From Candidatus Falkowbacteria bacterium (GTDB lineage: Bacteria; Patescibacteriota; Patescibacteriia; XYB2-FULL-38-15): 64,000 bases of DNA. Every line of letters begins with the position of its first letter. The stretch's first letter is position 1. The notes beneath the pieces are model-generated. The model made no database searches. It was not told the DNA's origin and saw nothing but the letters and a program-made list of their open reading frames with translations. Shown here piece after piece: positions 3,701-61,291 of the stretch. The position numbers were made by a program, and so were the translations under genes. The stretch lies in NCBI GenBank assembly GCA_016214745.1, contig JACRNW010000006.1:13367-77366 (forward strand), in the 5' to 3' direction.

Positions 3701-3707
3701 AGAACTC

Positions 3708-3785
3708 GATGCGAATTTACGAATTAATGCGAATGAAACGAATAATTCGTATTATTCGTATACATTCGTATATTTGTATCGCTAC
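3708..3785. repeat. Cargo-less imperfect palindrome related to the termini of the GxxExxY cassette at 22285-22650
   Basis: gcgaatttacgaattaatgcgaatgaaacgaata + attcgtattattcgtatacattcgtata. The reverse complement of the left arm (tattcgtttcattcgcattaattcgtaaatt) nearly equals 22635-22665 (tattcgtatcattcgcattaattcgtaaatt). Confidence 0.6.
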
Positions 3786-4576: not shown

Positions 4577-4762
4577 TTATTTTTTCTGCGTTTTTCGGCG
4601 TTATTATCGGCGTTTTTCTGCGGGAATGATAATTTATAGAAGCAGATTTACGCGGATCAAAACGCGGATTTACGCGGAAGATTTTAAGGTTTTTAAAACA
4701 GCCCTGGGGGCTATTTAGGATTAGTATAGCACAGGTTAAAAATAGCGCAAGATCCACTCTGC

Positions 4763-4867
4763 GAATTACAAATTATTTACAAATTTACAAATAACGGAAA
4801 AATGAGTTTTACCAAATTAACGTGTTAGCAAGAATTTGTATATTTGTACCGAATTTGTAATTTGTAG
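4763..4867. repeat. Palindromic intergenic element family P1, copy 2
   Basis: gaattacaaattatttacaaatttacaaataacgg...aattaacgtgttagcaagaatttgtatatttgtaccgaatttgtaatttgtag, directly after the gyrB stop. Confidence 0.8.
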
Positions 4868-4871
4868 TTGA

Positions 4872-6956
<2,085 letters not shown>

Positions 6957-7043
6957 CTAATATTTATTAAGTTATTATAGCATAGAATATTTTATAAAAC
7001 AAGGGGACAAAAGCCCCTCTAAAAGAAGTTTTATAGATAAACT

Positions 7044-7097
7044 TGCCCAGCTTTCGCTGGGAATCCAGAAAAAACGGAATCCCGACGAAAGTCGGGC
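7044..7097. repeat. GC-rich double-hairpin unit G2 (cccagc-UUUC-gctggg ... cccgac-GAAA-gtcggg)
   Basis: gcccagctttcgctgggaatccagaaaaaacggaatcccgacgaaagtcggg. An almost identical unit and a half lie at 31891-31970. Confidence 0.7.
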
Positions 7098-7173
7098 AAT
7101 CTGCAGCCGTTCGCCCAGATTTTATTTTTTTGCTATAATGAAGATGTAATTTACAAATCTTGTTTTTAAAGAT

Positions 7174-8955: not shown

Positions 8956-9083
8956 AGTCAGTTAATCTGTTAATCAGTTGATTAGTTAATCAGTTTTTGG
9001 TTTTGTTGGGTAGTTTTTGTTTGTGGCAATTTAGTCGCCATTTTTTTAACTGATTAACTATTTAACCATTTAACTATTTAACC
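8956..9083. repeat. Palindromic intergenic element family P2, copy 2
   Basis: gtcagttaatctgttaatcagttgattagttaatcagtt...ttaactgattaactatttaaccatttaactatttaacc. Confidence 0.7.
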
Positions 9084-9086
9084 AAA

Positions 9087-10181
9087 GTGCTCTCGCGGTA
9101 TTTTTCATTTTTAAAACGTTTTGACTGGGTACTCGCGACTTCAGTATTTTTGCTTATGGTTTTAAGTTTAGTCGCGCTTTACAGCATTTCTTTAAGCAAA
9201 GCCCCGCCGGATTTTTTAAATTTTAATAAGCAGTTGATTTTTATTTTTGTCGGCTTGGCGGGATTTTTTGTTCTTAGTATTTTGGATTATAAGTGGTTGA
9301 AATTTTACAGTTTTCCCATTTACGGTCTGGCGATGATTTTGTTAATCGCTGTTTTGATTTTTGGCCAGGTTATTCGCGGAACTCAGGGTTGGTTTGGTTT
9401 TGGTTGGTTTAATTTTCAGCCGGTGGAAGTGGCGAAACTTGCCATGATTATTTTTTTGGCGAAATATTTTTCCCGCGGGGCGCATGAAATTTTTAATTTT
9501 AAATATATCGCGATAAGCGGAGTTTTTTCAGGAGTTTTGATCGGTTTAGTTTTGCTGCAGCCGGATTTTGGTTCGGCGTTGGTTCTTTTTTTCTTGTGGC
9601 TCGCGATGTTATTTTTAATTGGAATAAAGAGATCGCACTTGATTTTACTTTTAGTTTTGGTTGCGGTGCTTCTCGCCGGTTCGTGGTTTTTTGTTTTTCA
9701 GGATTATCAAAAAGAAAGAGTTTTGAGTTTTTTTGACGCTTCGCGCGATCCGCTCGGCCGCGGCTACAATATTACTCAGGCGCAGATTGCCGTCGGTTCG
9801 GGCCAAATGCTCGGCCGAGGAATTGGTTTTGGACCGCAAAGCCAATTGCGTTTCGTTCCGGAAAGCCAGACGGATTTTATTTTCGCCGTTTTAGCCGAAG
9901 AATTGGGTTTTTTGGGCGCGGCGCTTATTCTTGCTCTTTGGGGCGTTATTTTTTGGCGGGTTGTCCGAATCGCGAGACGCGCCCGCGACGATTTCAGCTT
10001 ATTTTTCGCGGCCGGTACAGCGATTGTCTTTTTGATTCAGATTTTTATTAATATTGGTATGACAGTCGGAGTAGCGCCGGTGACCGGTATTTCTTTGCCG
10101 TTTTTAAGTTATGGCGGCAGCGCGCTGGTCGTAAATTTAGCGATGGTCGGGATTTTAGAGAGTATTGCGGCAAGATCGTAA
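9087..10181 (+). CDS. SEDS-family peptidoglycan glycosyltransferase (RodA/FtsW)
   Basis: 364 aa, polytopic, with conserved SEDS segments (QPVEVAKLAMIIFLAKYF; PESQTDFIFAVLAEELGFLG; LPFLSYGGSALV). Confidence 0.8.
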   Translation: MLSRYFSFLKRFDWVLATSVFLLMVLSLVALYSISLSKAPPDFLNFNKQLIFIFVGLAGFFVLSILDYKWLKFYSFPIYGLAMILLIAVLIFGQVIRGTQGWFGFGWFNFQPVEVAKLAMIIFLAKYFSRGAHEIFNFKYIAISGVFSGVLIGLVLLQPDFGSALVLFFLWLAMLFLIGIKRSHLILLLVLVAVLLAGSWFFVFQDYQKERVLSFFDASRDPLGRGYNITQAQIAVGSGQMLGRGIGFGPQSQLRFVPESQTDFIFAVLAEELGFLGAALILALWGVIFWRVVRIARRARDDFSLFFAAGTAIVFLIQIFINIGMTVGVAPVTGISLPFLSYGGSALVVNLAMVGILESIAARS

Positions 10182-11036: not shown

Positions 11037-12128
11037 ATGAAGGAATTATTCTCAAAAATAATTGCTTTTGTGAAGAAACAACCGCGCATTTGGCTGGTTG
11101 TTTCTTTGCTTTTAATTTCAGTTTTTGTGGTGGCCGGCGGAGGTTATTTGCTCCTTTCCAGAACTTCTTTTTTGGATTTTTTTTCCAGAAACAGTTCGGC
11201 GCAAGAAATTAGTAATGTGAATTCATCTTCGGAGAACGGATTTTACCGTTTGATTGACGGGGTGGCTGTTTCCGACGAGACAAAAATAAATCCGCCGCTC
11301 TTCGCCGTGCAGATTGAAAACATGGTTGACGCCAGGCCGCTTTCCGGAGTCTCCGGCGCCAGTTTGGTTTATGAAACTTTAGCCGAGGCCGGCATTACGA
11401 GATTGCTCGCGGTTTACGCGGCGGACGACGATGTGCCGGAAATCGGACCGGTCCGAAGCGCGAGACCATACTTTCTTGATTGGGCTGAAGAATATGGCGC
11501 GCTTTACGCCCACTCGGGCGGCAGTCCGGAGGCCTTGCGATTAATTCCGCAATACGACATTTTTGACCTGAATGAATTCGCAAACGGCAGATTTTTTTGG
11601 CGGTCAAAATCAAGATACATGCCGCACAATCTTTATACTTCAGTTGAACTTTTAAATGAAGCTTTCGCGGCGAAGAATGGCGAGGTAAAAATTTTCTCAT
11701 CTTGGCAGTTTAAAAATGAAGTTTTGGCGGAAGCGCGGCCGAGCGAAGAAAAACGGGCAAAAATTTATTTTTCCACAAAAACCTACGAAGTCGGCTGGCA
11801 ATATGACCGAGAGGCAAATGACTATTTGCGTTATCAGGCCGGCGTCATTCAGCAAGATAGAGACGGTTCCGAAGTTCGGGCAAAAAATATTATTGTTCAG
11901 CTTACTGACGTGATTGTTTTGGACGATGTCGGACGAAAAGATATTGAAACGCAGGGGAGCGGCGACGCGATTGTTTTTCAGGATGGCGTTAGAATCGACG
12001 GAACTTGGCGGAAAGAAACGCGGGGCGACCGGACGAAATTTTTTGATGCGACTGGCGCGGAAATAAAATTCAACCCGGGAGTGACCTGGGTTGAAGTAGT
12101 GCCGATAGATACTGAGGTCGAGTTTTAA
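11037..12128 (+). CDS. DUF3048-like secreted/membrane-anchored protein
   Basis: N-terminal TM, then RPLSGVSGASLVYETLAEAGITRLLAVYA, which resembles DUF3048 (YerB-like). Confidence 0.5.
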   Translation: MKELFSKIIAFVKKQPRIWLVVSLLLISVFVVAGGGYLLLSRTSFLDFFSRNSSAQEISNVNSSSENGFYRLIDGVAVSDETKINPPLFAVQIENMVDARPLSGVSGASLVYETLAEAGITRLLAVYAADDDVPEIGPVRSARPYFLDWAEEYGALYAHSGGSPEALRLIPQYDIFDLNEFANGRFFWRSKSRYMPHNLYTSVELLNEAFAAKNGEVKIFSSWQFKNEVLAEARPSEEKRAKIYFSTKTYEVGWQYDREANDYLRYQAGVIQQDRDGSEVRAKNIIVQLTDVIVLDDVGRKDIETQGSGDAIVFQDGVRIDGTWRKETRGDRTKFFDATGAEIKFNPGVTWVEVVPIDTEVEF

Positions 12129-12139
12129 TTTTAATTTCC

Positions 12140-12212
12140 GTAATTACCCAGTTACCCAATTACTTAATTACAATCTCGTAATTAAGTAACTAATAGTAAC
12201 TAAGTAATTAAA
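12140..12212. repeat. Palindromic element family P3 (taattaccc...gtaactaagtaattaa), copy 1
   Basis: gtaattacccagttacccaattacttaattacaatctcgtaattaagtaactaatagtaactaagtaattaa. Related copies at 36234-36335 and 54313-54358. Confidence 0.65.
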
Positions 12213-12337: not shown

Positions 12338-13234
12338 TTATATTTTAAAAATAACAACTCTATTTCTTCCCGCCAGGTCTTGTTTAATCTTTATTTTCGC
12401 GGCGGGAAAACGGCGCTTGATTAGTTTTGTGATAGATTTTTTTTGCGATGGGTCAATTTCGAAGAAACATGAAATATGAAACTTAAAACTTGAAACTTGA
12501 AAATTTTTGATTTGTTTTAGGAGTTGGCGGTAGTAATTGAGGCCGTCAGAACCGCCGTCCAGAGCTTGCTTCGGTTCATATTTTTTAATTTCCGGTTGAG
12601 TATGTCGCCACTGCGTGGTAGTGAGGTATGGCAAATTGGCAACGATTATTAAGTTGGAGTAGCGCCCGTAAGGGCGCGCTTGTGACGCAGCCTCACGGCT
12701 GCTATTCCGCGATGGAATAGTCATCAATGGCTCAAGCAAATTGCCGTGTAGCAAAGTAACGGCGACTTTATGATGAAGAATATTTTTTCGCGCTACTTTT
12801 AACGCCGCCGCCGAAATTTCTGTGGCGAAGATTTTTGCTTTGGGAAGATGGTGGGCGAGTGTTATGGCGATGGCGCCGCTTCCGGTTCCGACATCAATGA
12901 TTGCAGTTGGATTTTTATCTATTGCGGCTTCAACTAATGTTTCCGTTTCGGGGCGGGGGATTAGAACATTTTTATCAACAAAAAAATCCAGGCCGTAAAA
13001 ATATTTGTGGTCCGTGAGGTAGGCGATTGGTTCATGCCGTACTCGCCGAGCAATAAGTTTTTTAAATTTAGCCAGTTGTCCCGCGGCCAATTTTTTTTTA
13101 GGATGCGCGTACAAAAATTCTTTTGGTTTTTTTGTAACAAAAGCTAAAAGAATCTCTGCATCCAAGGCAGGGGAGGAAATTTTATTTTTTTGTAAAATTT
13201 TTATTGCCTCAATGAGCGATTGCTTGATAGTCAT
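12338..13234 (-). CDS. prmC: release factor glutamine methyltransferase PrmC/HemK, carrying a roughly 20-aa in-frame GC-rich insert
   Basis: DVGTGSGAIAITLA (SAM motif I) and IVANLPYL (NPPY-type motif). I place the start at MTIKQSL because the upstream in-frame codons lie inside the terminator hairpin of the neighbouring islet gene. The insert is MTIPSRNSSREAASQARPYGRYS, encoded by hairpin-forming GC-rich DNA at 12655-12728. Confidence 0.75.
   Translation of the reverse strand: MTIKQSLIEAIKILQKNKISSPALDAEILLAFVTKKPKEFLYAHPKKKLAAGQLAKFKKLIARRVRHEPIAYLTDHKYFYGLDFFVDKNVLIPRPETETLVEAAIDKNPTAIIDVGTGSGAIAITLAHHLPKAKIFATEISAAALKVARKNILHHKVAVTLLHGNLLEPLMTIPSRNSSREAASQARPYGRYSNLIIVANLPYLTTTQWRHTQPEIKKYEPKQALDGGSDGLNYYRQLLKQIKNFQVSSFKFHISCFFEIDPSQKKSITKLIKRRFPAAKIKIKQDLAGRNRVVIFKI
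12655..12728. repeat. In-frame GC-rich palindromic mini-insert inside prmC
   Basis: Hairpins agcgccc-gtaa-gggcgcg and ctattcc-gcgat-ggaatag lie between the conserved HemK motifs, where homologs have about 7 residues. Confidence 0.55.
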
Positions 13235-13316
13235 AGCGTTATTATAACATAAAAAAAGGCCTGAGCACTTGCGCACTCAGGCACCTCCTTGGAATTCGTT
13301 CCGCGGTGGGCTACGT

Positions 13317-13853
13317 TCAGGTGGGCTTGCCGGCGGTGGGCTCGACGACCTCCAGCTCCTCCTCGACGACCTCGGCTTCCGGAGCGTCAGCTTCTTCCGT
13401 GGCGGCTTTCGTGGCCTCCGCTCGGCTCTCGGTGACACAAGCGTCGAGCTCACGGTAGGGGAAAGCGTTGACGAGGTTGCTCCACGTGACGGGGTGACCG
13501 TCGGAGTCTTCCGTGTGGAGGAACTCCTCGAAAGCCGTCACAGTTTCATCGTGAGGGATTCGCTTGAACAGCTCGTCGACGAACAACTTGAAGTCCTTGG
13601 TGGCCGCCTCGAAGAGAGTCAGATTGTCCTCCACGCTTCCATGCCAGCCGGCGTAGAAGGGTCCGACGATCTTCGCGAAGCCGTGCAGTCCGACGAGACG
13701 CTTCAGGCCGGCGACGAAGCTCGGCTTCAGGCCCTCGCCGGGGATGGCCAGGATCTTGGCCACGATGTCCTCGACCCTCAGGAACCCCGTCAGGTAAGCC
13801 TTCTCCAGGCCGTCCGCAAGAAATACCTTCGCCATTTCCCGTCTGTCTTCCAT
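13317..13853 (-). CDS. GC-rich islet protein A (hypothetical, acidic C-terminal tail)
   Basis: MEDRREMAKVF... of about 178 aa. It has its own promoter (TTGACA-17-TAATGT at about 13918-13946, minus strand), an SD (gaaggaaaacc) before the ATG, and a hairpin plus T-run terminator (13259-13285, minus). GC content is far above that of neighbouring genes. Confidence 0.5.
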   Translation of the reverse strand: MEDRREMAKVFLADGLEKAYLTGFLRVEDIVAKILAIPGEGLKPSFVAGLKRLVGLHGFAKIVGPFYAGWHGSVEDNLTLFEAATKDFKLFVDELFKRIPHDETVTAFEEFLHTEDSDGHPVTWSNLVNAFPYRELDACVTESRAEATKAATEEADAPEAEVVEEELEVVEPTAGKPT

Positions 13854-13917
13854 GGTTTTCCTTCGCTTGCCTTTGCCCGCGACACGCGGGGAATTTTGGC
13901 AAGACCTTTCTACCCGC

Positions 13918-13946
13918 ACATTAGTTTAAAAAATTTTGTTTGTCAA
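13918..13946 (-). promoter_or_regulatory. sigma70-type promoter of islet gene A
   Basis: Minus-strand read cTTGACAaacaaaattttttaaacTAATGT: 17-nt spacer, placed about 60 nt upstream of the ATG. Confidence 0.45.
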
Positions 13947-14122
13947 GATAAAAAAAGAGCCCGCGGACTGCCGGGAGGGGGTGGGAGGTCTAAGACCTTT
14001 CCACGCGGCAGTACGCGGGCTTCGCGCCGGGGCTCTCCTGTGGTTTCGGGAGGGGCGCGAATTTGGACGGAGAACGAGCGGGTTAGGAACTCGCAGCTCT
14101 CACGTTGTTCGGGGGTGGACTA

Positions 14123-14335
14123 CTACTGGTCGGTGCCGTGAAGGCGGTATTCGCGCGCCTTCCGCCTGGCTCCTTCGGCTTGGCGGCGTTCCTCCTCGTC
14201 GTCGGGGATGAACCCGTCGGCGCGGCGATGATTCGGCCGACGCCTCTCGATCACGAACGGCCCTCCGTCCGGAATGATGCGAGATCCGTCGCGCGAGAGA
14301 GGCGTGCCATCGTGCATGAAAACTCCCTTTGACAT
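14123..14335 (-). CDS. small basic GC-rich protein (about 70 aa)
   Basis: The SD GAGGAGG lies 6 nt upstream of ATG: MSKGVFMHDGTPLSRDGSRIIPDGGPFVIERRRPNHRRADGFIPDDEEERRQAEGARRKAREYRLHGTDQ. Confidence 0.3.
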   Translation of the reverse strand: MSKGVFMHDGTPLSRDGSRIIPDGGPFVIERRRPNHRRADGFIPDDEEERRQAEGARRKAREYRLHGTDQ

Positions 14336-14500
14336 CCCTGTCCTCCTCAACCTTCCCTACGATCTCTATTGACAACTCGTCCCGTCCATCGGGCCGAGAT
14401 GTAGGGCCACCTTCCTTGCGTTTTGACGCGTGTCAACGGCGCAAAGCCACCCTGTTTGTTGATTTCATAATATTACAAAAAGATTAATTTGTCAACCCCC

Positions 14501-14529
14501 TTGACAAATTTTTTAATTATGATAGAGTA
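14501..14529 (+). promoter_or_regulatory. sigma70-type promoter (TTGACA, 16-nt spacer, TGaTAGAGT extended -10) overlapped by the inverted repeat ttgtcaa-ccccc-ttgacaa
   Basis: Read directly from the sequence. No protein-coding ORF follows it. Confidence 0.4.
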
Positions 14530-14534
14530 TTACG

Positions 14535-14855
14535 GCAAGGGTAATGGGGAGTCCTGTTCGGCTGATGCCAGCAGCGCACTGGCGTCATGGGTAATCTTTT
14601 TTCATCCCAAATCTAGAGCCCCTGGTTGGCGAACAGCGCGTTGATGCGCGGCCGACCTTGAGGCAAAGGACCCACGGGGTGGTCAGCAGGAACCCGGTCC
14701 GCGAGCTGCCCGTGAAGCAGACGTGGACTGAAATCTCCCCCGCGTTTTCGATCCTCCAAATCCGCTTTTAGCGGGTAAGGAGGTCACCCTTCTTTGCACA
14801 CCGCTACGTTTCGCGTTGTGCCTGTCGGTCGAACACCTGTTCGGCCGACTCTTTT
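14535..14855 (+). ncRNA. Candidate structured GC-rich non-coding RNA of about 320 nt (identity unknown)
   Basis: A promoter at 14501-14529, no ORF longer than 10 codons, and a strong terminator at 14818-14855 (gtcggtcgaacacctgttcggccgac + tctttttt). About 60% GC in an AT-rich genome. I could not match tmRNA, RNase P or SRP signatures by eye. Confidence 0.3.
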
Positions 14856-14880
14856 TTATATCAAAATTTATATCAAAAAA

Positions 14881-15083
14881 CCGGCCTTGCGGCCAGTCAA
14901 TTTTCCCCTCTTAAGGTAAGAGGGGCTGGGCCTGCCCGCAACGCCAGCAACCTGCCCGCTAATGCAAGCATAGCGTTGCAGGCGGGGCTGGCTTGCGTGG
15001 CGGGCGGGGGCGTTATGAGCGGCGATTTTAAAATCCACGGTTCATAACGCCACCCAACCCCCCCTTATCTTAAGGGGAGGGGT
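14881..15083. repeat. GC-rich composite element G1, copy X (flanked by ccccttaagg-type mini-hairpins)
   Basis: The roughly 130-bp core (cccctcttaaggtaagaggggctgggcctgcccgcaacgccagcaacctgcccgctaatgcaagcatagcgttgcaggcggggctggcttgcgtggcgggcgggggcgttatga...) is nearly identical to the reverse complement of 33070-33200. The last hairpin encodes the prfA C-terminus and stop. Confidence 0.8.
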
Positions 15084-16122
15084 TCATTGTTTCTTTTTTC
15101 AACACTTCAATGATCGGGTCAAGTTCGCCATCCATCACGTTATTTATACTATGCCAACTTTCTTTAACGCGGTGATCGGAAACGCGGTCTTGAGGAAAAT
15201 TATAAGTTCTGATTTTTTCCGCGCGCATGGCCGAACCGATCTGCGAACGTCGCGCCGCGACTTCCGCCGCCTGGCGTTTTTCCTGCTCCATTACAAAAAG
15301 TCGGGCGCGCAAAACTTGCATGGCTTTTTCCCGATTTTGCTGCTGGGAACGTTCGTCTTGGCAGGCGACAACAAGGCCCGACGGAATATGAGTAATACGC
15401 ACGGCGGAATATGTCGTTTGCACGCTCTGCCCGCCATGGCCGCCGGATAAAAATGTATCAACGCGCAAATCTTTTGGTTCAATTTTAATATCAATTTCTT
15501 CAGCTTCAGGAAGGACGGCGACGGAAGCGGTTGAAGTATGAACCCGGCCGCTTTTTTCCGTTTCCGGAACGCGCTGAACGCGATGCACGCCGCTTTCAAA
15601 TTTTAAATTTCCCCAAGCACCTTTTCCGATAACAGAAAAAATAATTTCTTTAAAACCTCCAAGGTCAGTGCGGTTGGCCGAGATCAATCTTGTCTGCCAG
15701 CCCTTGCGCTCGGCAAAGCGCGAGTACATTCGGAAAAGTTCGGCGGCAAAAATTGCGGCTTCATCGCCGCCGGCGCCAGCCCGGATTTCCACAATAATAT
15801 TTCTTTTGTCCAACGGATCTTTCGGCGTCAGTTCTTCTTTGATTTCCGCTTCAAGCGCCGACTTTTCTTGCCTAATTTTTTCCAATTCTTCTTTGGCAAT
15901 GACAGCCAATTCGGGAATGTCTTGCGCAGCAACGGTTTCCGTGTCAGTTTCTTCCTTTTCCAGTTTATGAAATTTATTTATTTTTTCCATTACTTCTTTT
16001 AAGTCGCTGTATTCCCGCGAAACGGTTTTCAGTTTTTCCGGATTAGAAACCACCTCGGGGCGGGCGAGTTCGGCCTCGAGTTCGGCAAAACGTTTTTCAG
16101 CTTTAGCGATTTCAGGAATCAT
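15070..16122 (-). CDS. prfA: peptide chain release factor 1
   Basis: 350 aa with GGQ ([12 protein letters not shown]) and the RF1-type PxT-like tripeptide ([14 protein letters not shown]). Confidence 0.9.
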
Positions 16123-16221
16123 AAATTATTTAAACATCTAAACATTTAAACATTTTAACATAAATTCTAACATAAAAACATGATAACAAAAACGTTACCA
16201 TGTTTTATGCAAATTGAATAG

Positions 16222-17885: not shown

Positions 17886-17961
17886 TTTTTATAAAAACAT
17901 ATAAACATCTAAACATACAAACAATTGTTTAAATGTTTAAATGTTTGAATATTTAAATATT

Positions 17962-18552
17962 ATGATCGTAAATCCAAAACTTGTTTCCGAGCTCCGCAAT
18001 GAAACCGGCGCCGGCGTTGTTGAATGCAAAAACGCCCTGGACGAAGCGAACGGAGACATCGCAAAAGCGATTGAAATTTTGAGAAAAAAGGGTGAGATTA
18101 AAGCCGCGAAAAAATCGGCCGAACGGACAACCAAAGAAGGTTTGATTCATGCTTATGTCCACGCGAACGGCAAAGTCGGAGCGATGATTGAAATGAGTTG
18201 TGAAACTGATTTTGTGGCGCGGAATGAAGAATTTCAGGCTTTGATTCATGATGTCGCGATGCAAGTCGCGGCGACTAATCCGTTGTACGTAAAACCCGAA
18301 GACGTGCCGGAAGAAGTGGTTGCAAAAGAAAAACAGATGTATCTTGAAGAATTGCAGGGGCAGGAAAAACCGCCGATGGTAGTGGAAAAAATTCTCGCGG
18401 GAAAATTGGAAAAATATTTTGAAGATGTTTGTCTCTTAAACCAGCCGTTCGTTAAAGACGAGGATATTACAATTGGAGAATTAATAAATCAAAAAATCGC
18501 CAAGATCGGCGAGAAGATTGAAGTGAAGAAATTTGTTAGGTTTCAGATTTAA
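17962..18552 (+). CDS. tsf: elongation factor Ts
   Basis: EF-Ts N-terminal UBA-like region (ELRNETGAGVVECKNALDEANGDIAKAIEILRKKG) and core. I place the start at ATG 17962 rather than the track's 17941. Confidence 0.85.
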   Translation: MIVNPKLVSELRNETGAGVVECKNALDEANGDIAKAIEILRKKGEIKAAKKSAERTTKEGLIHAYVHANGKVGAMIEMSCETDFVARNEEFQALIHDVAMQVAATNPLYVKPEDVPEEVVAKEKQMYLEELQGQEKPPMVVEKILAGKLEKYFEDVCLLNQPFVKDEDITIGELINQKIAKIGEKIEVKKFVRFQI

Positions 18553-18555
18553 TTT

Positions 18556-19347
18556 ATGAAGATAGTTGAGGTCCAATTTACGCCGTGGGGAAGGATTTAC
18601 GACTTTGATGCCGGAGAATTCAATTTTCCGATAGGTGATTTTGTGGTTGTGAAAACAGATCTCGGCGTGGAAATGGGCAAAGTGGTTGGCGCGAAAGAAA
18701 TTGGCGCGAAAGAAATTGAAACGGCCAAACTTGAAATCAAACCGATTTTCAGAAAGGCCAGCACGGCCGACATGATAAAATTCAAAGAAAAAGAAGGTCA
18801 GAAGAAAGAAGCGCTTTCGGTCTGCAAGCAGTTGGTTAAAAAATACAATCTGCCGATAAAATTAATCGACGTCCACTTTTCTTTTGATGGTGGGCGTGTT
18901 ACTTTTGCTTTTGTGGCCGACGGACGGGTGGATTTCCGCGATTTAGTCAAAGATTTGACCAGAATTTTTCAGAAATCAATCCGCCTTCAGCAGTTAGGTA
19001 TCCGCGACGAAGCAAAAATTTCCGGCGATGTCGGCGCTTGCGGCCGGAATCTTTGCTGCCAAAAATTTAAAAAAGATTTGGGAAATATTTCTTCGGATTT
19101 GGCCGACCTCCAGCAAATTGCTCATCGCGGTTCGGACCGTCTGACCGGTGTTTGTGGGCGGCTGATGTGTTGTTTGGCGTATGAGCAGAAAACTTACGAA
19201 GAAGCGGTAAAAAAACTTCCGCCGGTTGGCACGAACGTCCGGACGGACCGCGGCCGGGGAAAAGTAATCGGCTGGCATACCCTAAAACAGTCAGTTGATG
19301 TAAGATTAGAAGAGGGGACAATTATTGAAGTTCCCATCAAAAAATAA
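18556..19347 (+). CDS. PSP1 domain protein (YaaT/RicT-like)
   Basis: Conserved Cys-rich PSP1 C-terminal region ([10 protein letters not shown]...[13 protein letters not shown]). Confidence 0.65.
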
Positions 19348-21212: not shown

Positions 21213-22259
21213 ATGACGCATGCGGAGTTACAAAAATTCATAGCATTTTTGATGAAGCGCGGCTGGACAGTTTTTGCGCCGGAAAAACGGCCGGGAGAGG
21301 TTGTTTATGCCGAAGTGCAAGACGCCGCCAAAGTTAAGTTGATTTCCGAACCGCCGCTGCATTCATTTAAAAGATTTTTGGTTCCGCCCGAGGAAACGCT
21401 TTTTGAGTACGAAAAAGACAAACTGAACGAGGTTCGCGATGCGGGAATAAAAATTCCGAAGCAAGTGATTTTTGGCATTAATCCGGTTGATCTGAAAGCG
21501 ATTGTAATGTTAAATCAAATTTTTGAGCGAGATCCCTGGTATCAGGAACGGATGCGGCGGACGCTTATCATCGGCCAGAGTTTAATCCCGGCCGATGTTG
21601 AACATAATATTTTTCAAATTAAATACGAAGAAGACATTTTGGAACATCTGCAGTTTGATATTTTTTTGGAAGTGCAGCCCCTCACCCCTGCCCGCAACGC
21701 CAGCGCTAGCGTGGCAGGCGGGCCAACCCTCTCCCCAAAGGGGAGAGGGGCAGAGTATTTTGTCTACACCGGTTCGGAAGAAGGGCAAAGCAGTTTGGAA
21801 GATTTCGGTTATGAAGATTATGAGCACATCGCTTTCGCCGGACCGATCAGGGAAGAGGGTTTTGATCCCATGATGGTAAAATACCGCGACGCGCTCCGAA
21901 AAACTTACAAAAAAGAAATTTGGGAAAATGATATCGGCGCGCGTTGTATTGAGTGCGGCAAATGCACGCTTATTTGCCCGACCTGTTTTTGTTTTGATAT
22001 GAAAGATCAGCCGGATTTAGTGGGCGATGGCGGGGTGCGCAAGCGCGCTTGGAGCGCTTGTTTTTATAATGATTTTTCCGAAGTCGCCGGCGGGCATAAA
22101 TTTTTAAAAACTACGGCCGAGCGGATTCATTTTTGGTATTATCATAAATTTGTCCGAATTCCGGACCAGATTCAGATTATGGGTTGCGTCGGCTGTGGCC
22201 GGTGCGCCAAGGTCTGTCCGGTGAACATAAATATTTTTAAAGTTCTGGCGGCATTGTGA
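21213..22259 (+). CDS. hydB: [NiFe]-hydrogenase group 3b beta-like subunit (4Fe-4S; AsrA/HydB-like), carrying an in-frame GC-rich insert
   Basis: Two Cys clusters ([16 protein letters not shown]; [13 protein letters not shown]). The segment [26 protein letters not shown] is encoded by the G1-related GC-rich hairpin DNA at 21676-21752. Confidence 0.65.
21676..21752. repeat. In-frame GC-rich element inside hydB (a shortened G1 derivative plus the mini-hairpin ctccccaaaggggagagg)
   Basis: Shares cctgcccgcaacgccagc with G1 copies at 14925 and 33160. The local GC jump is visible in the sequence. Confidence 0.6.
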
Positions 22260-22272
22260 TTGCGATACGAAT

Positions 22273-22662
22273 ATGCCAATACATACGAATGATACGAATA
22301 AAATCATTTATAAAGAACTTTCTTATAAGATTAATGGTATTTTATTCAGGGCGCATAATGAGTTGGGTCGGTATTGTCGCGAAAGGCAGTACGCCGACAA
22401 ATTGGAAGAACTTTGGAAAGAAAATAAGATTAATTACAAAAGAGAAAAGAAAATGCTTGGCGATTTAGTGACAGGTAACATTCCCGATTTTTGTATAGAA
22501 GACAAGATATTGTTAGAAATTAAGGCAAAAAGTTTTATTGTCAAAGAAGATTATTATCAAATACAGCGGTATTTGCAGACAAATAAAATTAAGTTGGGGC
22601 TATTAGTCAATTTTAGAAATCGTTATCTCAAACCTATTCGTATCATTCGCATTAATTCGTAA
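22273..22662 (+). CDS. GxxExxY family protein (PD-(D/E)xK-like small protein)
   Basis: 129 aa matching the GxxExxY family pattern ([22 protein letters not shown]...[45 protein letters not shown]). Confidence 0.7.
22285..22650 (+). mobile_element. GxxExxY gene cassette bounded by 16-bp inverted repeats that overlap the gene's own first and last codons
   Basis: acgaatgatacgaata at 22285-22300 against tattcgtatcattcgc at 22635-22650 (15 of 16 complementary). It sits between hydB and the gamma subunit. A related cargo-less palindrome lies at 3708-3785. Confidence 0.4.
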
Positions 22663-22707
22663 ATTAGTATCGATTTTGGATTAGTCATCTATGGATAGCA
22701 GTTTTTT

Positions 22708-31890: not shown

Positions 31891-31970
31891 CGGAATCCCG
31901 ACGAAAGTCGGAAAATTGCCCAGCTTTCGCTGGGAGTCCAGAAAAAACGGAATCCCGACGAAAGTCGGGT
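31891..31970. repeat. GC-rich double-hairpin unit G2, 1.5 copies
   Basis: ggaatcccgacgaaagtcgg...gcccagctttcgctgggagtccagaaaaaacggaatcccgacgaaagtcggg. Compare 7044-7097. Confidence 0.7.
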
Positions 31971-32027
31971 TTTTGATTTCTCCCCTTAAGGTAAGGGGAG
32001 ATTAAGAGGGGTGAAATGGGGTTGACA

Positions 32028-32056
32028 AACTTGCTAAAATGTGTTATTCTAAATTG
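32028..32056 (+). promoter_or_regulatory. sigma70-type promoter (gTTGACAaac-17-TATTCT) preceding a hairpin-dense roughly 300-nt leader of islet gene D
   Basis: Read from the sequence. The leader at 32060-32360 contains at least 6 GC-rich hairpins (ctccccgaaggggagag, ctccctttaaaaaagggagag, cccccctttatcaagggggga and others). Confidence 0.35.
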
Positions 32057-32365
32057 TTAGTAAATAGTTCTTTTAAAGGTAAAACCCCCTCACTCCAACT
32101 CTCTCCCCGAAGGGGAGAGAGAGTTTCCTCGCCCCACTGGGGAGAGGACTAAGGTGAGGGGGCAACAAGTTCCCAGTTTTCTTTTGGCGGTTTTAAATCC
32201 CTCTCTAACTCTCCCTTTAAAAAAGGGAGAGAAATTCCCCCCTTTATCAAGGGGGGATTAAGGGGGATTTGCGAAGACCCCCAAAAGAAGGCTGGGAATT
32301 TCTCTCGGCCAGAGACAGCAACGTAGTCGCCGCGGGCGACCAGTTGCGAAGAAGGAGAACGAGTC

Positions 32366-32869
32366 ATGAGCGACGAGTTCAGGATGACGACGGGACAGGC
32401 GCATGAGTTGGCGATGGCCTTCGGTCGCAACGGCTGGACCAACGCCGACGTGAAGAAGATGTCTGAGGGCGATCTGCTCGCCCGACTGCTACCGGTCATC
32501 CGGGGGCAGGCCGACGTGAAGAAGCCGGAAATCCCGACCGAGATGACCGTCGGCGGCCGCGTCTACGAGATCCTCTCCTTCCTCCGGGAGGAGGACAACG
32601 GATTCGTCCGCGGCGACGTGATGGTCTCCCGGGCGAAGGAGCTCGGCGCCAACCTCGGCAAGGAGGACTGCGAGTTCCTCCTCACCCACCAGGACGAGAT
32701 TCCGCCCGCGTTGCGGGGCAAAGTCGTCTTCGTCTTCCCGGACTTGCGGCGCCCGGGCGACCGCGAGCACGTCGCGTACCTCCACTGGGACGACGGCGGC
32801 TGGTACCGGCACTGGTACTGGCTCTCGGACGACTGGGACGGCTACGATCGTCTCCTTCGCCGCAAGTAG
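32366..32869 (+). CDS. GC-rich islet protein D (hypothetical, W/D-rich C-terminus)
   Basis: SD gaaggag before the ATG. 167 aa with high GC3. Shares a weak DCEF/FEEF-L-x-T motif with islet proteins A and C. Confidence 0.45.
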   Translation: MSDEFRMTTGQAHELAMAFGRNGWTNADVKKMSEGDLLARLLPVIRGQADVKKPEIPTEMTVGGRVYEILSFLREEDNGFVRGDVMVSRAKELGANLGKEDCEFLLTHQDEIPPALRGKVVFVFPDLRRPGDREHVAYLHWDDGGWYRHWYWLSDDWDGYDRLLRRK

Positions 32870-33018
32870 TGTCCTTGGACCCTGGGTAACTCGGCCCTTC
32901 AAACCGGCCTGGTCGCTCGGACCCTCGGACACTTTGTCCCTTGGCCCCACTTCAAATCCAATGCTTCACAAAGCAAAGGAAATGAAGCGGGGCCGTTTTT
33001 TTATTTAAGATTTTAGAT

Positions 33019-33207
33019 TTTCTCCCCTTAAGGTAAGGGGAGACTAAGAGGAGTTATGAACGGTGGATTTTAGTGCTACGGTTCATAACGCCCCCGCCCG
33101 CCACGCAAGCCAGCCCCGCCTGCAACGCTATGCTTGCATTAGCGGGCAGGTTGCTGGCGTTGCGGGCAGGCCCAGCCCCTCTTATCTTAAGAGGGGAGCG
33201 TTATACT
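33019..33207. repeat. GC-rich composite element G1, copy Y (inverted relative to copy X)
   Basis: The reverse complement of 33070-33200 matches 14908-15040 almost base for base. Confidence 0.8.
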
Positions 33208-33265
33208 GATTTTTTTATTTATCTTTTTATGATATAATGAATAAAATTAGTGAAGAGAATAAATT

Positions 33266-34558
33266 ATGAAAATAAAAATAAGCCACCTCGCCAAAATTGA
33301 AGGGCATGCCAGTTTTTTTGCCGATATGCTCGCCGGCGATATCAAAAACGCCAAATTGAAAATTACGATTGGCGCGCGTTTGATTGAATCAATAATTTTA
33401 AACCGCAATTATATTGAAACGCCGATTGTGACCTCGCGCATTTGTGGCATATGTTCGGTGGCGCACAATATCACAAGCATTAAAGCGATTGAAAACGCAT
33501 TAAAAATAAAAATAAATCCTCAAATTGAACGGCTCCGAAAAGTTTTGGTTTTGGCCGAGCCGATCCAAAGCCACGCGGCGCATCTTTTCTTTTTATCTTT
33601 ATCCGATTTTTTCAAATATGAAAGCGACATTGATTTGATGAAAAAATATCCCGACCTCGCCAAAAAAATTATTTTGATTCGCGATTTTGGAAATAAAATT
33701 AAAGATGTGGTCGGCGGAAGAGATATGCACATGATCGTGACGGAAATCGGCGGGTTTAGAAGAGTGCTTGATGATAAAATAATTCAAAAATTAATTGATG
33801 AAACTGAAGGCGTGCTAGAAGCCGCGATTGGCGTGGCGAAATTTTTTCGGGCGCTTGATTATCCGAAATATGAACGGAAAGTGGAATTTGCGGGACTCAC
33901 CGCGCCGCGCGAGTATGCTTTTTATGACGGCGTAATTGGATCAACTATGGAGTCGGCACGTCCCGTGAAAAAATTCTATAAAGAACTTGTGGAAAAGCAA
34001 ACTGCGGACGATCCGACCAAGCGCGCGCGGCACGAGGGCAAAAGTTTTATGGTCGGCGCGATTGCGCGGTTAAATTTGAGCCACAAATTTTTAAATCCCG
34101 AAGCGAAAAAGTTTTTGACTTTTTTTGACAAATCCCTCTCCAACTCTCCCTTTGGAAAAGGGAGAGGGTCTGTTCTCACGTTTAACACTTTTCACAATAT
34201 TTACGCCCAGTCTGTGGAGCTCGTTCATTGCGTTGAAGAGGCGCAAAAACTGCTCAAAGAATATTTGCGCGATAAATCAAGAAATTTGATGGTAAAATAT
34301 ACTTTAAAAAACGGCGAAGGACTTGGAGCGACCGAGGCGCCGCGCGGCACGCTTTATCATTATTATAAAATTGATAAATATGGTGTGATTCGCGCTTGTA
34401 ATATTATTACTCCGACGGCGCAATTTTTGGATAATTTGGAAAATGATTTGGAAAAATATTTGAATGAGGCAAAAATCAAAGATGAGAAGGATAGAAAATG
34501 GAAAATAAATATGATGGTGCGCGCGTACGATCCTTGTATGACATGTGCTACACACTAA
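33266..34558 (+). CDS. hydA: [NiFe]-hydrogenase large subunit (group 3-like, about 430 aa), ending exactly at the C-terminal His
   Basis: N-terminal RICGICSVAH (L1 motif) and C-terminal DPCMTCATH followed by stop, so there is no cleavable extension. An in-frame hairpin insert lies at 34133-34170. Confidence 0.8.
   Translation: MKIKISHLAKIEGHASFFADMLAGDIKNAKLKITIGARLIESIILNRNYIETPIVTSRICGICSVAHNITSIKAIENALKIKINPQIERLRKVLVLAEPIQSHAAHLFFLSLSDFFKYESDIDLMKKYPDLAKKIILIRDFGNKIKDVVGGRDMHMIVTEIGGFRRVLDDKIIQKLIDETEGVLEAAIGVAKFFRALDYPKYERKVEFAGLTAPREYAFYDGVIGSTMESARPVKKFYKELVEKQTADDPTKRARHEGKSFMVGAIARLNLSHKFLNPEAKKFLTFFDKSLSNSPFGKGRGSVLTFNTFHNIYAQSVELVHCVEEAQKLLKEYLRDKSRNLMVKYTLKNGEGLGATEAPRGTLYHYYKIDKYGVIRACNIITPTAQFLDNLENDLEKYLNEAKIKDEKDRKWKINMMVRAYDPCMTCATH
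34133..34170. repeat. In-frame GC mini-hairpin element inside the hydrogenase large subunit
   Basis: tccctctccaactctccctttggaaaagggagagggtc encodes SLSNSPFGKGRGS. It is near-identical to the intergenic copy at 32208-32231 (tccctctctaactctccctttaaaaaagggagag). Confidence 0.6.
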
Positions 34559-34655: not shown

Positions 34656-34913
34656 ATGCATGACCTTCACGAAGCAGACAGAATTTTAAAATTAGTTTTG
34701 GATCACGCCGAGCGCCATAAGTTGAAGTCGGTGACAAAAGTCGTTATCGGACTTGGCAGCGTGATTGAGCATGGTTCGGAAATAAATCCGGAAAATTTAA
34801 AATTTAATATTGGCGTGCTGGCGCGTCAAACTATGGCGGAAAACGCGGAAGTGGTGGTTAAAAAAATAAAAGCCGATACTTGGGAACTTGAAGAAATAGA
34901 GGGGGATAAATAA
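34656..34913 (+). CDS. hypA: HypA-like N-terminal domain protein (nickel-insertion factor) lacking the C-terminal zinc finger
   Basis: MHDLHEADRILKLVLDHAERHKLKSVTKVVIGLGSVIEHGSEINPENLKFNIG matches the HypA N-domain pattern (MHE-type N-terminus). 85 aa with no Cys; the ORF stops immediately before P1 copy 3. Confidence 0.5.
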   Translation: MHDLHEADRILKLVLDHAERHKLKSVTKVVIGLGSVIEHGSEINPENLKFNIGVLARQTMAENAEVVVKKIKADTWELEEIEGDK

Positions 34914-34917
34914 ATAT

Positions 34918-35026
34918 CTACAAATTACGAATTCGGTACAAATGTACAAATTTTTTCTAACACGTTAATTTAAAAAAACGTAATTTGTCGTTATTTGTAT
35001 ATTTGTAAATAATTTGTAATTTGTAG
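34918..35026. repeat. Palindromic intergenic element family P1, copy 3 (inverted relative to copies 2 and 4)
   Basis: ctacaaattacgaattcggtacaaatgtacaaattttttctaacacgttaatt...ttatttgtatatttgtaaataatttgtaatttgtag. Confidence 0.8.
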
Positions 35027-36253: not shown

Positions 36254-36335
36254 TTACCTAATTACCAAACCATCAAAATATAAATTTAGATTGAAGAATG
36301 GGGTAACTAAGTAATTGATAGTAATTAAGTAATAA
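36234..36335. repeat. Palindromic element family P3, copy 2
   Basis: aattacctaattacctaattaccaaacc...ggggtaactaagtaattgatagtaattaagtaat. Confidence 0.65.
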
Positions 36336-54316: not shown

Positions 54317-54358
54317 TTTGTAATTTGTAATTGGGTAACTAAGTAATTAAGTAATTAA
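54313..54358. repeat. Palindromic element family P3, copy 3 (short)
   Basis: gtaatttgtaatttgtaattgggtaactaagtaattaagtaattaa. Confidence 0.55.
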
Positions 54359-54362
54359 AAAT

Positions 54363-54845
54363 ATGAAAAAAATTATTTTTCTTACGGCGCTAATTTTAGC
54401 GGTTTTAGTTTTATCCGGAGCGGGATGCGCTTGGTTTCCATCCGAGAGGGAAGAGGCGACAAACGTGCCGCGAGAGACGGAAACAAACGTTAACGCGCCG
54501 GCCGATCCAACTGCCGGCTGGGAAGTTTATGAGAGCGTTCCATGGGCAATTGAAATGAAATATCCGTCAACATATAAAACTGTTATTGATACTTATGGCT
54601 GGCCGCATGCCCTGGTTCATTTTATTGAAGTGGCGCCGGGCGCGCAATCTTATCGGGCGCAGATTGAAACTTGGGATAACGAAGGAGATTTTCGTACAAC
54701 TTATGGCCGAGATCCGGCGTATATTGTTGAACACCTAAACGGTAAAAATTGGGTGACAGTTGATTACAACCCCAATCCGACAAATCCGGCCGTGGCCGAA
54801 GAATGGGAATTGATTATTTCCACTTTCCGTTTTACCGCGCCGTAA
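54363..54845 (+). CDS. putative lipoprotein
   Basis: Signal peptide with lipobox (LSGAGCAW). Confidence 0.45.
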   Translation: MKKIIFLTALILAVLVLSGAGCAWFPSEREEATNVPRETETNVNAPADPTAGWEVYESVPWAIEMKYPSTYKTVIDTYGWPHALVHFIEVAPGAQSYRAQIETWDNEGDFRTTYGRDPAYIVEHLNGKNWVTVDYNPNPTNPAVAEEWELIISTFRFTAP

Positions 54846-58648: not shown

Positions 58649-58772
58649 CTACAAATTACAACTCTACAAATTACAAATCATTTACAAATATACAAATAAC
58701 AGTGAAGTGTATTTTACAAAATTAACGTGTTAGTAAAAATTTGTATATTTGTACCGAATTTGTAATTTGTAG
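58649..58772. repeat. Palindromic intergenic element family P1, copy 4
   Basis: ctacaaattacaactctacaaattacaaatcatttacaaatatacaaataacag...aattaacgtgttagtaaaaatttgtatatttgtaccgaatttgtaatttgtag. Confidence 0.8.
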
Positions 58773-58785
58773 AATAGTAGAATGT

Positions 58786-58983
58786 ATGAAGAAATATTCA
58801 TGTGCACGTTGCGGAAAGGGGAGAACGCGCTACCGCACTCCGTCGCCTTTTAAAGTAATGGCGGCCGAACGGGCTAAAAGAGATAAAATATATGCCCCGT
58901 TAGAAGTTCAGCAACGTGCTTCTCAAGGCAACGCACAAAAGGCGAAGCCGACTTACGTCTCTCGTTACGTGGATAAAAGATAA
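58786..58983 (+). CDS. small basic protein with a single CxxC
   Basis: MKKYSCARCGKGRTRY... of 65 aa. Start placed after the P1 repeat. Confidence 0.3.
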   Translation: MKKYSCARCGKGRTRYRTPSPFKVMAAERAKRDKIYAPLEVQQRASQGNAQKAKPTYVSRYVDKR

Positions 58984-60983: not shown

Positions 60984-61177
60984 GGAATTTGTTTTGTGGA
61001 TAAAATTAGCTTGACAGGTTTTTCTGGGTATTGTAGTATAAATTAATTGACAAGCGAATGAGAGAAATGAATTTATTCATTTCCGAGTGAGCGCAGTCAA
61101 TATAGGGTAAAACCCTCTATTACCAAAGACAGCAGGCGTTTGCCCTAAAAGGCGACTCAATTTCCTGCCGAGGTAAA

Positions 61178-61286
61178 CTAGTTGATCAGTTAAATAGTTA
61201 ATTGGTTAAATAGTTATTGTCTCGTGGTAATTGCCACGATTTTTTGTATCCCGATTAACTAATCAACTGATTAACCAATTAACTGA
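61178..61286. repeat. Palindromic intergenic element family P2, copy 3
   Basis: agttgatcagttaaatagttaattggttaaatagtta...ttaactaatcaactgattaaccaattaactga. Confidence 0.7.
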
Positions 61287-61291
61287 CATAT

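Follow-up and report, generated by a model that had tools for sequence, protein, structure and literature searches.

What is the GC-rich, hairpin-forming sequence that occurs twice, inverted and nearly letter for letter, in this stretch of Candidatus Falkowbacteria DNA (Patescibacteria; Candidate Phyla Radiation, CPR), and how did its two copies come to be alike? The stretch, 64,000 nucleotides in all and called the window below, is AT-biased (about 40-45% GC) with a few GC-rich stretches. One copy, here copy A, adjoins prfA, and the other, copy B, adjoins the hydrogenase gene hydA. An earlier note on this DNA had described them as an element of about 130 bp, abutting GC islets and spread by recent transposition or gene conversion. 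The account we consider probable is that each copy is a non-autonomous form, resembling a miniature inverted-repeat transposable element (MITE), of a module that elsewhere carries an open reading frame (ORF) for a DUF559 protein. The ORF-less copies would probably be inert locally, the tract that they share would stem from gene conversion, and the spread of the family would be driven by the nuclease.

The near-identity of the pair stands. A repeat search of the window returned inverted arms at 14904-15079 and 33022-33197, which are 176 nt long, 90% complementary and separated by 17,942 nt. Pairwise alignment of 14905-15019 with the reverse complement of 33083-33197 gave 115 nt with a single mismatch, located in the loop of a terminal mini-hairpin. 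The other ~60 nt have diverged and are about 70% alike; they comprise the loop of the CGTTATGA..TCATAACG hairpin together with the second terminal hairpin. The mini-hairpin CCCCTTAAGNTAAGGGG, with up to two mismatches allowed, gave eight strand-matches at five sites (14907, 15061, 31982, 33024, and 33178), against 0.03 expected in shuffles. A backbone profile run over the 64 kb with nhmmer found two full copies and one solo end (31976-32013), and nothing else. Both copies (176-178 bp) are non-coding, with a reading-frame remnant of only five codons.

The hairpins that had been described, an internal CGTTATGA...TCATAACG and terminal mini-hairpins, were also recovered. The 130-bp element is in fact two things, a 78-nt GC-rich hairpin nested in an older inverted-repeat element of about 108 bp. 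This backbone consists of two terminal mini-hairpins (CCCCTCTTAAGRTAAGAGGGG) and inner arms GGGGAGTTATGA / TCATAACTCCCC, in the order mini-hairpin, arm GGGGAGTTATGA, short loop, arm TCATAACTCCCC, and second mini-hairpin inverted. The 78-nt hairpin is identical in copies A and B and occupies one internal position, between an arm and its terminal hairpin. The parts, together with a shortened form of the nested hairpin, are as follows (labels of the form L003 denote the loci used for comparison).

14904-15081, plus strand: copy A, the nested element (backbone plus 78-nt hairpin), between the end of prfA and the prfA terminator
14905-14925: prfA-distal terminal mini-hairpin of copy A (CCCCTCTTA-agg-TAAGAGGGG)
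14928-15005: nested 78-nt hairpin of copy A (hairpin 1), boundaries ambiguous by about 3 nt; missing in the orthologous copies of L003 and L005
15006-15055: inner arms of copy A, GGGGGCGTTATGA / TCATAACGCC, around a short loop
15058-15081: prfA-proximal terminal mini-hairpin of copy A, encoding the end of prfA (..NPSP) and its stop (15070-15072)
21678-21746, plus strand: short hairpin 1 with an adjoining CCCTCTCCCC/GGGGAGAGGG hairpin, 23 codons in frame in hydB (21213-22259)
33021-33197, minus strand: copy B, inverted relative to copy A, between a terminator-like hairpin after a 167-aa ORF and hydA
33096-33173: nested 78-nt hairpin 1 of copy B, the same as that of copy A; missing in the homologous L127 copy (18891-18989)

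As a single strand, the element folds with its terminal sequences of about 20 nt paired as a closing stem, each of which also forms a hairpin of its own, and within the stem lie the long GC-rich hairpin and a GTTATGA/TCATAAC hairpin. Against shuffles, the RNA fold reaches -113 kcal/mol (z = -8.3), the opposite strand z = -7.5, and the fold with DNA parameters z = -6.7. Both strands thus fold equally well, as a DNA palindrome would give. MITEs are small (under about 500 bp), non-coding, and bounded by terminal inverted repeats; here the ~20-nt ends pair in the minimum free energy fold and are conserved across seven related copies.

The prfA site shows the element present in some relatives and absent from others. 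In the window, prfA (15070-16122, minus strand), whose product is 100% identical to an NCBI protein, is followed by a predicted terminator at 14898-14879 (minus strand), and copy A lies between stop codon and terminator, inside the predicted prfA transcript. We compared the prfA-prmC regions of relatives with 90-94% identity in prfA. The site is empty in L135 and L007, where the prfA stop is followed by a short A-rich spacer and the same terminator. In L003, L004 and L005 a 108-nt element sits at that exact place and prfA gains an NPSS tail, while the window has the 108-nt element plus about 78 bases of GC-rich hairpin, and the tail reads NPSP. L132 carries other hairpin repeats instead. Orthologous sites are thus empty in L135 and L007 and occupied in L003, L005 and the window, which makes the element polymorphic for insertion and its 176-nt form nested. 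None of the related backbone copies that could be read has the 78-nt hairpin, neither those of L003 and L005 at prfA nor those of L127, L130 and L131 beside homologs of the 167-aa ORF that adjoins copy B.

The nested hairpin also has short forms outside the backbone. The shortened derivative that the earlier note had placed in hydB is real, as an exact, in-frame insertion of 23 residues relative to the L127 ortholog (84% identical); its sequence, at about 21678-21746, is CCTGCCCGCAACGCCAGC-GCTA-GCGTGGCAGGCGGG plus the adjoining hairpin. L001 and L002, on other contigs, carry a short form as a 45-nt hairpin in frame in a glycosyltransferase ORF. A 25-mer from the nested hairpin had no match in species-representative genomes and two in metagenomes, which share only the short form of about 45 nt. 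The element itself had no match in plasmid or phage collections.

How the two copies came to share a tract is best seen from identities over the left 63 nt in an alignment of seven backbone copies. Copy A agrees with its positional ortholog in L005 at 56/63 positions (89%) and with copy B at 44/63, while copy B agrees with L130 at 59/63 (94%) and with L127 at 55/63. At the junction beside the nested hairpin, copy A matches the B lineage at 14/15 to 14/16 positions and its own orthologs at 11-12/18. Copy A is thus a mosaic, ortholog-like in its left part and B-like at the junction, and the two copies are old residents of two different sequence lineages. Given two older lineages, the identical tract is read as a patch of gene conversion and not as fresh transposition. 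Most likely, the prfA-site copy received the 115 nt (terminal hairpin, nested hairpin and adjoining arm) from a B-type copy by short-patch conversion. The loop base of the terminal hairpin, considered as a marker of the two lineages, was disproved as such by the L127 copy.

The link to DUF559 comes from the wider distribution of the end units, each a hairpin followed by an arm. A scan for the hairpin pattern in one genome per species gave at least 119 loci (139 occurrences among the matches listed), in Nitrospirota, Desulfuromonadales (Geobacter and relatives), Dehalococcoidia, several Patescibacteria, Bacteroidota and Gammaproteobacteria. Units stand as solo ends, as inverted doublets like the window element, back to back, or in tandem. 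GTTATG, usually within GGGGAGTTATGA, follows the hairpin within 60 nt in 112 of the 139 listed occurrences, mostly at 8-10 nt, and the stem covaries, with its two variable pairs Watson-Crick in 136 and 137 of the 139 (about 89 expected). Clustering of the ORFs near the units brought out one specific recurrent family, DUF559 proteins of about 125 aa, abutting units at seven loci among the matches listed. The unit's ATG is itself the first codon of four of these seven ORFs, and for most the reading frame closes in or at the right arm and hairpin. In such a module the left arm supplies the start codon, as the ATG of GTTATG, and the right arm or the right hairpin supplies the stop. Unit-linked DUF559 proteins match Pfam PF04480 (E = 1e-31 to 1e-36), and matches were also obtained to PDB 3hrl (E = 6e-21) and to the PHROG family 'homing endonuclease' (E = 3.5e-8). 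Among PD-(D/E)xK nucleases, DUF559 falls in the Vsr clade, as does the homing endonuclease I-Bth0305I (PMC3424549, PMC3239194).

A second sample consisted of the best 120 homologs of one unit-linked DUF559 protein, chosen by protein similarity and not by hairpin; one DUF559 query has 1,348 homologs at E <= 1e-10. A tail of the type encoded by the right arm and hairpin (..TPPxLPL, ..NSPxPS) ends 88 of these 120 proteins, against 0/120 in an internal control window. Some homologs have an N-terminal extension encoded by the left hairpin, and in the DNA flanks of two proteins from the sample the units were seen directly. Since the same hairpin-and-arm units bracket DUF559 genes elsewhere, the window copies are taken to be ORF-less, MITE-like derivatives. 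In prfA orientation, the arms of copy A read ATG AAC CGT GGA TTT TAA where related elements hold the DUF559 ORF, that is, an ATG, four codons and a stop, and nothing more. A DUF559-type nuclease supplied in trans would cut at or near the structured ends, and recombinational repair would then copy the element, much as in homing. No DUF559 gene was found in the 64-kb window, which makes the local copies probably inert passengers.

Several other observations touch these units. In L137, a 486-kb Deltaproteobacteria contig, two tandem hairpin-and-arm units stand before a DUF559 gene and three after it (290-400, 780-890), with differing loops and constant arms (GGGGGAGTTAYGA), so units can multiply locally. 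DUF559 genes are reported among the enriched targets of predicted inversions (PMC9881135), an enrichment that may come from flanking inverted repeats such as these units. The ATG of GGGGAGTTATG was also considered as a general start for host genes and rejected. ORFs from it have a median length of 14.5 codons and 15% reach 60 aa (29% for random ATGs), and gene starts lie within 30 nt in 29% versus 20% of cases, a modest excess. The long ORFs that start at a unit's ATG are DUF559 or assorted host genes.

Several points weigh against this account. The local absence of a DUF559 gene is one of them. To our knowledge, a PD-(D/E)xK nuclease alone is not a known transposase, and integration at new sites is left unaccounted for. 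In other phyla, solo ends that have no partner within 4 kb make up the majority of units, a pattern that would also suit a REP-like repeat (repetitive extragenic palindrome) merely colonised by DUF559 genes. The A-rich flanks of the element (..AAA|element|AAAA..) have diverged from those of the empty alleles, and no unambiguous target-site duplication can be called. The case for conversion leans on relatives that are not direct ancestors. Finally, units in Dehalococcoidia carry a related secondary hairpin (GGCCTGCCCGCC..GGCAGGCGGG), beginning with the same GGCCTGCCCGC at the same internal position, and this permits a site-specific 78-nt insertion into both copies.

Two other histories could account for the shared tract. 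Had the whole 176-nt composite moved recently from one site to the other, one would expect what is seen in part, namely 115 nt identical but for one mismatch, inverted ends, and polymorphic presence. Yet the identity ends inside the element, the diverged parts match the corresponding copies of relatives (89% for A and L005, 94% for B and L130), and at both loci relatives already hold older, hairpin-less copies. Fresh transposition of the whole element is therefore improbable, and of the two processes proposed in the earlier note it is conversion that we favour. The main alternative to a conversion patch, although we think it unlikely, is that the 78-nt hairpin is itself a small mobile palindrome that was inserted independently and site-specifically into both backbones. 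Its short forms do stand alone inside genes, and the Dehalococcoidia units have their related hairpin at the same position. In copy A, however, the bases that flank the insert have also switched, from the ortholog type AACTCCCC-TTAAT-CCCC to the B type AACGCCCCC..AG-CCCC, and a change of flank along with the hairpin is expected for co-conversion and not for a clean insertion.

A primarily functional RNA or regulatory structure, such as a 3'-untranslated region (3'-UTR) stabiliser, a terminator or a small RNA gene conserved for that role, would suit the very stable predicted structure (z about -8) and the position of copy A in the prfA transcript. It has a low probability in our view, given that both strands fold equally well, that close relatives lack the element at the same site with no replacement, and that copies lie in both orientations relative to genes and even inside ORFs. 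Rfam gave nothing credible for the element, for the whole window at gathering thresholds, or for 13200-15150 at E <= 1, and no tRNA genes were found in the window. Still less probable is that the units are REPs or REPINs (REP doublets) mobilised by a REP-associated tyrosine transposase (RAYT, an IS200/IS605-like Y1 transposase), with DUF559 genes merely among them. Single units, inverted doublets and tandem clusters do resemble REPs and bacterial interspersed mosaic elements. Against this, there is no conserved GTAG-type 5' tetranucleotide (units start CCCC or CTCC and have GGGGAGTTATGA on the 3' side), near-identical units span phyla as lineage-specific REP/RAYT pairs do not, and the DUF559 start and stop codons are built into the arms. 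The recurrent ORF families within 1.5 kb of units, among the at least 119 loci, are histidine kinases and DUF559. No recurrent transposase-like family was found there, with limited power and with two minor three-locus clusters unannotated. The least probable proposal, very remote in our judgement, takes the elements as integron attC sites and the GC islets as gene cassettes. CATAAC...GTTATG is loosely like R''/R', the islets are small promoter-plus-ORF units of foreign composition, and one islet-ORF homolog, in L130, adjoins a tyrosine recombinase gene. TCATAAC and GTTATGA, however, each miss RYYYAAC (R'') and GTTRRRY (R') at two degenerate positions, and there is no same-orientation array, only two inverted copies 18 kb apart. 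The L130 recombinase is XerC/XerD (248 bits), with an integron-integrase score of 122 bits below the 265-bit cutoff, it has no homolog in the window, and islet 1 exists without the element.

Preferring the DUF559 account with its conversion patch, we turn to the surroundings of the two copies, which comprise the following further features.

13277-14903: islet 1, from prmC to prfA, with GC-rich minus-strand ORFs and a plus-strand promoter-to-terminator non-coding unit
31912-33245, plus strand: islet-2 block, homologous to a block in the gyrB-ftsW spacer of relatives
31977-32015, plus strand: solo end unit (mini-hairpin and degenerate arm), matching the islet-side end of copy B as a direct repeat (36 nt, 94%)
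32195-32231, plus strand: type-2 end unit (AAATCCCTCTCTAAC plus hairpin CTCTCCCTTT..AAAGGGAGAG); the same architecture flanks the L003/L127 DUF559 gene
34130-34166, plus strand: second type-2 unit, within the hydA ORF (33266-34558), in a region that aligns as inserted sequence against solved sulfhydrogenase alpha subunits

Flanked by a GC-rich 167-aa ORF (32366-32869) and by hydA, copy B splits the hydD-hydA pair. A look-up of the exact hydD protein of the window found no record. The islet-2 block to which it belongs runs from a D8 repeat through the solo unit, a promoter, a leader with other hairpin repeats, the 167-aa ORF, the terminator-like hairpin and copy B to a TATAAT stretch. The alignment of window positions 32867-33245 with L127 takes in the end of the ORF, the terminator-like hairpin and the entire backbone, and continues for about 50 nt to the shared TATAAT-containing stretch; the sole gap is the 78-nt hairpin. 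In L127, L128 and L131 the block is located in the gyrB-ftsW spacer. The same spacer of the window (6913-7120) lacks the block yet retains the 58-nt D8 repeat, whose other copy (31912-31969) forms the left edge of the relocated block. A block of at least 1.3 kb has thus moved or been copied, taking copy B along, and copy B reads as a passenger in it. The two D8 copies (7039-7096 and 31912-31969) form a direct repeat, 97% identical, with two small hairpins (CCCAGCTTTCGCTGGG, CCCGACGAAAGTCGGG), and the relocation may have left D8 behind as a recombination scar.

With 115 identical bases in inverted orientation, the two copies could in principle support an 18-kb inversion, also as isomers at low frequency. 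Gene order is shared with L127 over about 6.0 to 31.0 kb of the window, across copy A, the L127 contig ending before the hydD-hydA junction, and the comparison over that range gave no sign of inversion or of repeat misassembly; hydD-hydA and prfA-prmC retain their expected neighbours in the window.

The element had also been described as abutting a GC islet at each copy. GC is 0.55-0.64 in the stretches that adjoin copies A and B (background about 0.40-0.45), so the adjacency exists, but it is incidental. All relatives examined, those with an empty site included (L007 and L135 have the islet and no element), carry a GC-rich islet and its conserved promoter between prfA and prmC, and the islets are at opposite ends of the element in the two copies. 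Islet and element are therefore independent. Both islets are small units with their own predicted sigma-70-like promoters.

Some features of the islets deserve mention in their own right. The prfA-prmC islet (window 13277-14500; also in L003, L005, L007 and L132) has 55-70% GC, a conserved promoter TTGACA..TAATATTCT, and ORFs of 69-88 aa, with a further one of 177-236 aa in most; L007 has the small ORF only. Among 1.8 billion cluster representatives, the 178/200-aa islet protein has only 9 homologs. It matches nothing in Pfam, PADLOC or PHROG, and the same three collections gave no match for the islet ORFs of the window. At 14501-14860 (plus strand), a non-coding stretch of about 345 nt begins with a sigma-70-like promoter (TTGACA-16-TAGAGT) and ends in a strong terminator. 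It has a fold z of -4.6 and no credible Rfam match, is missing from the same spacer of L003, L005, L007 and L135, and may be a lineage-specific small RNA gene. The family of the 167-aa ORF in islet 2 numbers 51 proteins, every source-named match being from Patescibacteria, and several paralogs per genome are possible. Each copy examined (window 32366-32869; L128; L130; L131; L127 19140-19718) has its own promoter. One fixed position in the 5' leader holds a different small repeat in each copy, namely the 108-bp element in L130 and L131, other hairpins in the window, and a TGTCATTGCGAG-ended repeat in L128. A leader repeat at window 32087-32163 and at L128 2708-2790, with an outer stem CCCCCTCAC/GTGAGGGGG that encloses two CCCC..GGGG hairpins, is of similar design.

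Between hydB and hydG, the relative L003/L127 has a DUF559 gene flanked by units of the same architecture and different hairpin sequence. At this spot the window has a gene for a 129-aa PD-(D/E)XK nuclease (22263-22676; Pfam PDDEXK_3, E = 1.4e-18), whose first and last codons lie within inverted repeats of 38-42 nt rich in ACGAAT, a third copy of which is at 3703-3744. The DUF559 gene of L127, with its own hairpin units, is nested between remnants of these same repeats. The site has the look of a hot spot at which small nuclease genes turn over. Elsewhere in the window, an AT-rich repeat family (110-123 nt, 84-91% identity, both orientations), containing ATTTGTATATTTGTA..TTTGTAATTTGTAG, occurs at 2649-2751, 4756-4881, 34904-35026 and 58650-58786, and all four copies look intergenic. 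AT-rich runs with a period of about 8 nt (TAAACATT and TAACTAAT types) occur at many sites in both orientations (8957-9087, 12128-12210, 16115-16163, 17886-17962, 36303-36335, 54327-54375, and 61172-61287) and are candidate protein-binding or promoter-associated arrays. A ribosomal protein L10 leader is present at 61105-61255 on the plus strand (Rfam RF00557, 47.7 bits, above the gathering score).

A MITE-like pair is ordinary in itself; the interest lies in the nested structure, in the in-frame insertions that CPR genes tolerate and, most of all, in the tie to DUF559 across phyla. Small palindromic repeats are common in bacteria, and for most of them we know of no mover. DUF559 proteins are annotated as 'endonuclease domain-containing protein' or 'very-short-patch-repair endonuclease', and we know of no role for them. 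We propose, tentatively and at somewhat less than even confidence, that the units and the ~125-aa DUF559 genes form a previously undescribed class of minimal selfish element that crosses phyla, with start and stop codons in portable inverted repeats and with ORF-less derivatives and a nested hairpin in CPR genomes. No description of these elements was found in the searchable literature, the coverage of which is partial. If the proposal is true, a large family labelled as a domain of unknown function would gain a biological role, and small palindromic repeats a new route of spread. With the repeat ends tied to one small nuclease family, whether the nuclease cuts these hairpins becomes testable. 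Reduced CPR genomes tolerate such repeats within essential operons and reading frames, and the element explains odd N- and C-terminal tails of predicted proteins, such as ..NPSP in prfA and ..TPPxLPL in DUF559. Identical inverted tracts could also mislead the assembly of metagenome-assembled genomes.

Among the closest known systems are the MITEs of the Correia/NEMIS (Neisseria miniature insertion sequence) and ERIC (enterobacterial repetitive intergenic consensus) types. These also measure 100-180 bp, are folded whole into a long stem-loop by their terminal inverted repeats, lie in intergenic regions or 3'-UTRs where they are co-transcribed with neighbours, and vary in presence between close relatives. 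The element described here differs in its unrelated sequence, in having no TA or clear target duplication, and in that each terminal repeat is a hairpin; moreover, its coding relative has a PD-(D/E)xK endonuclease and not a DDE transposase, and its ends are near-identical across phyla. REP and REPIN sequences with RAYTs are likewise short, GC-rich palindromic units found singly, as inverted doublets and in clusters. They carry a GT(A/G)G tetranucleotide at the 5' end of a palindrome of 20-40 nt, and the cognate RAYT gene is flanked by repeats, whereas the present units lack a GTAG-type motif and RAYT association and are not lineage-restricted. Palindrome-associated derivatives of IS200/IS605 (PATEs) likewise have hairpins at their ends and, at a fixed distance (8-10 nt) from the foot of the hairpin, a short conserved motif. 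In PATEs, subterminal hairpins are in direct orientation and transposition is single-stranded and TnpA-dependent, while here the end hairpins are inverted (loop AGR at one end, YCT at the other) and no TnpA/TnpB gene is present.

In Rickettsia, palindromic elements (RPEs) are tolerated in frame, as here in hydB, probably hydA, the L002 glycosyltransferase and the C-terminal tail of prfA. The present inserts are shorter (45-80 nt), reside in Patescibacteria, and are linked to a two-ended element and an endonuclease gene. The likeness is one of description, sequence homology not being expected given the different phylum and length. Vsr-like (EDxHD) homing endonuclease genes such as I-Bth0305I differ in that DUF559 proteins are of about 125 aa, have no NUMOD DNA-binding region and lie outside introns and inteins. 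They are flanked by portable, structured inverted repeats and not by a host-gene target, and their nuclease role is predicted, a nuclease of recognised homing-endonuclease fold being present in the coding DUF559 relatives only. The two nevertheless have in common a small Vsr-like PD-(D/E)xK nuclease in a compact selfish module, and the coexistence of ORF-containing and ORF-less alleles of the same flanks.

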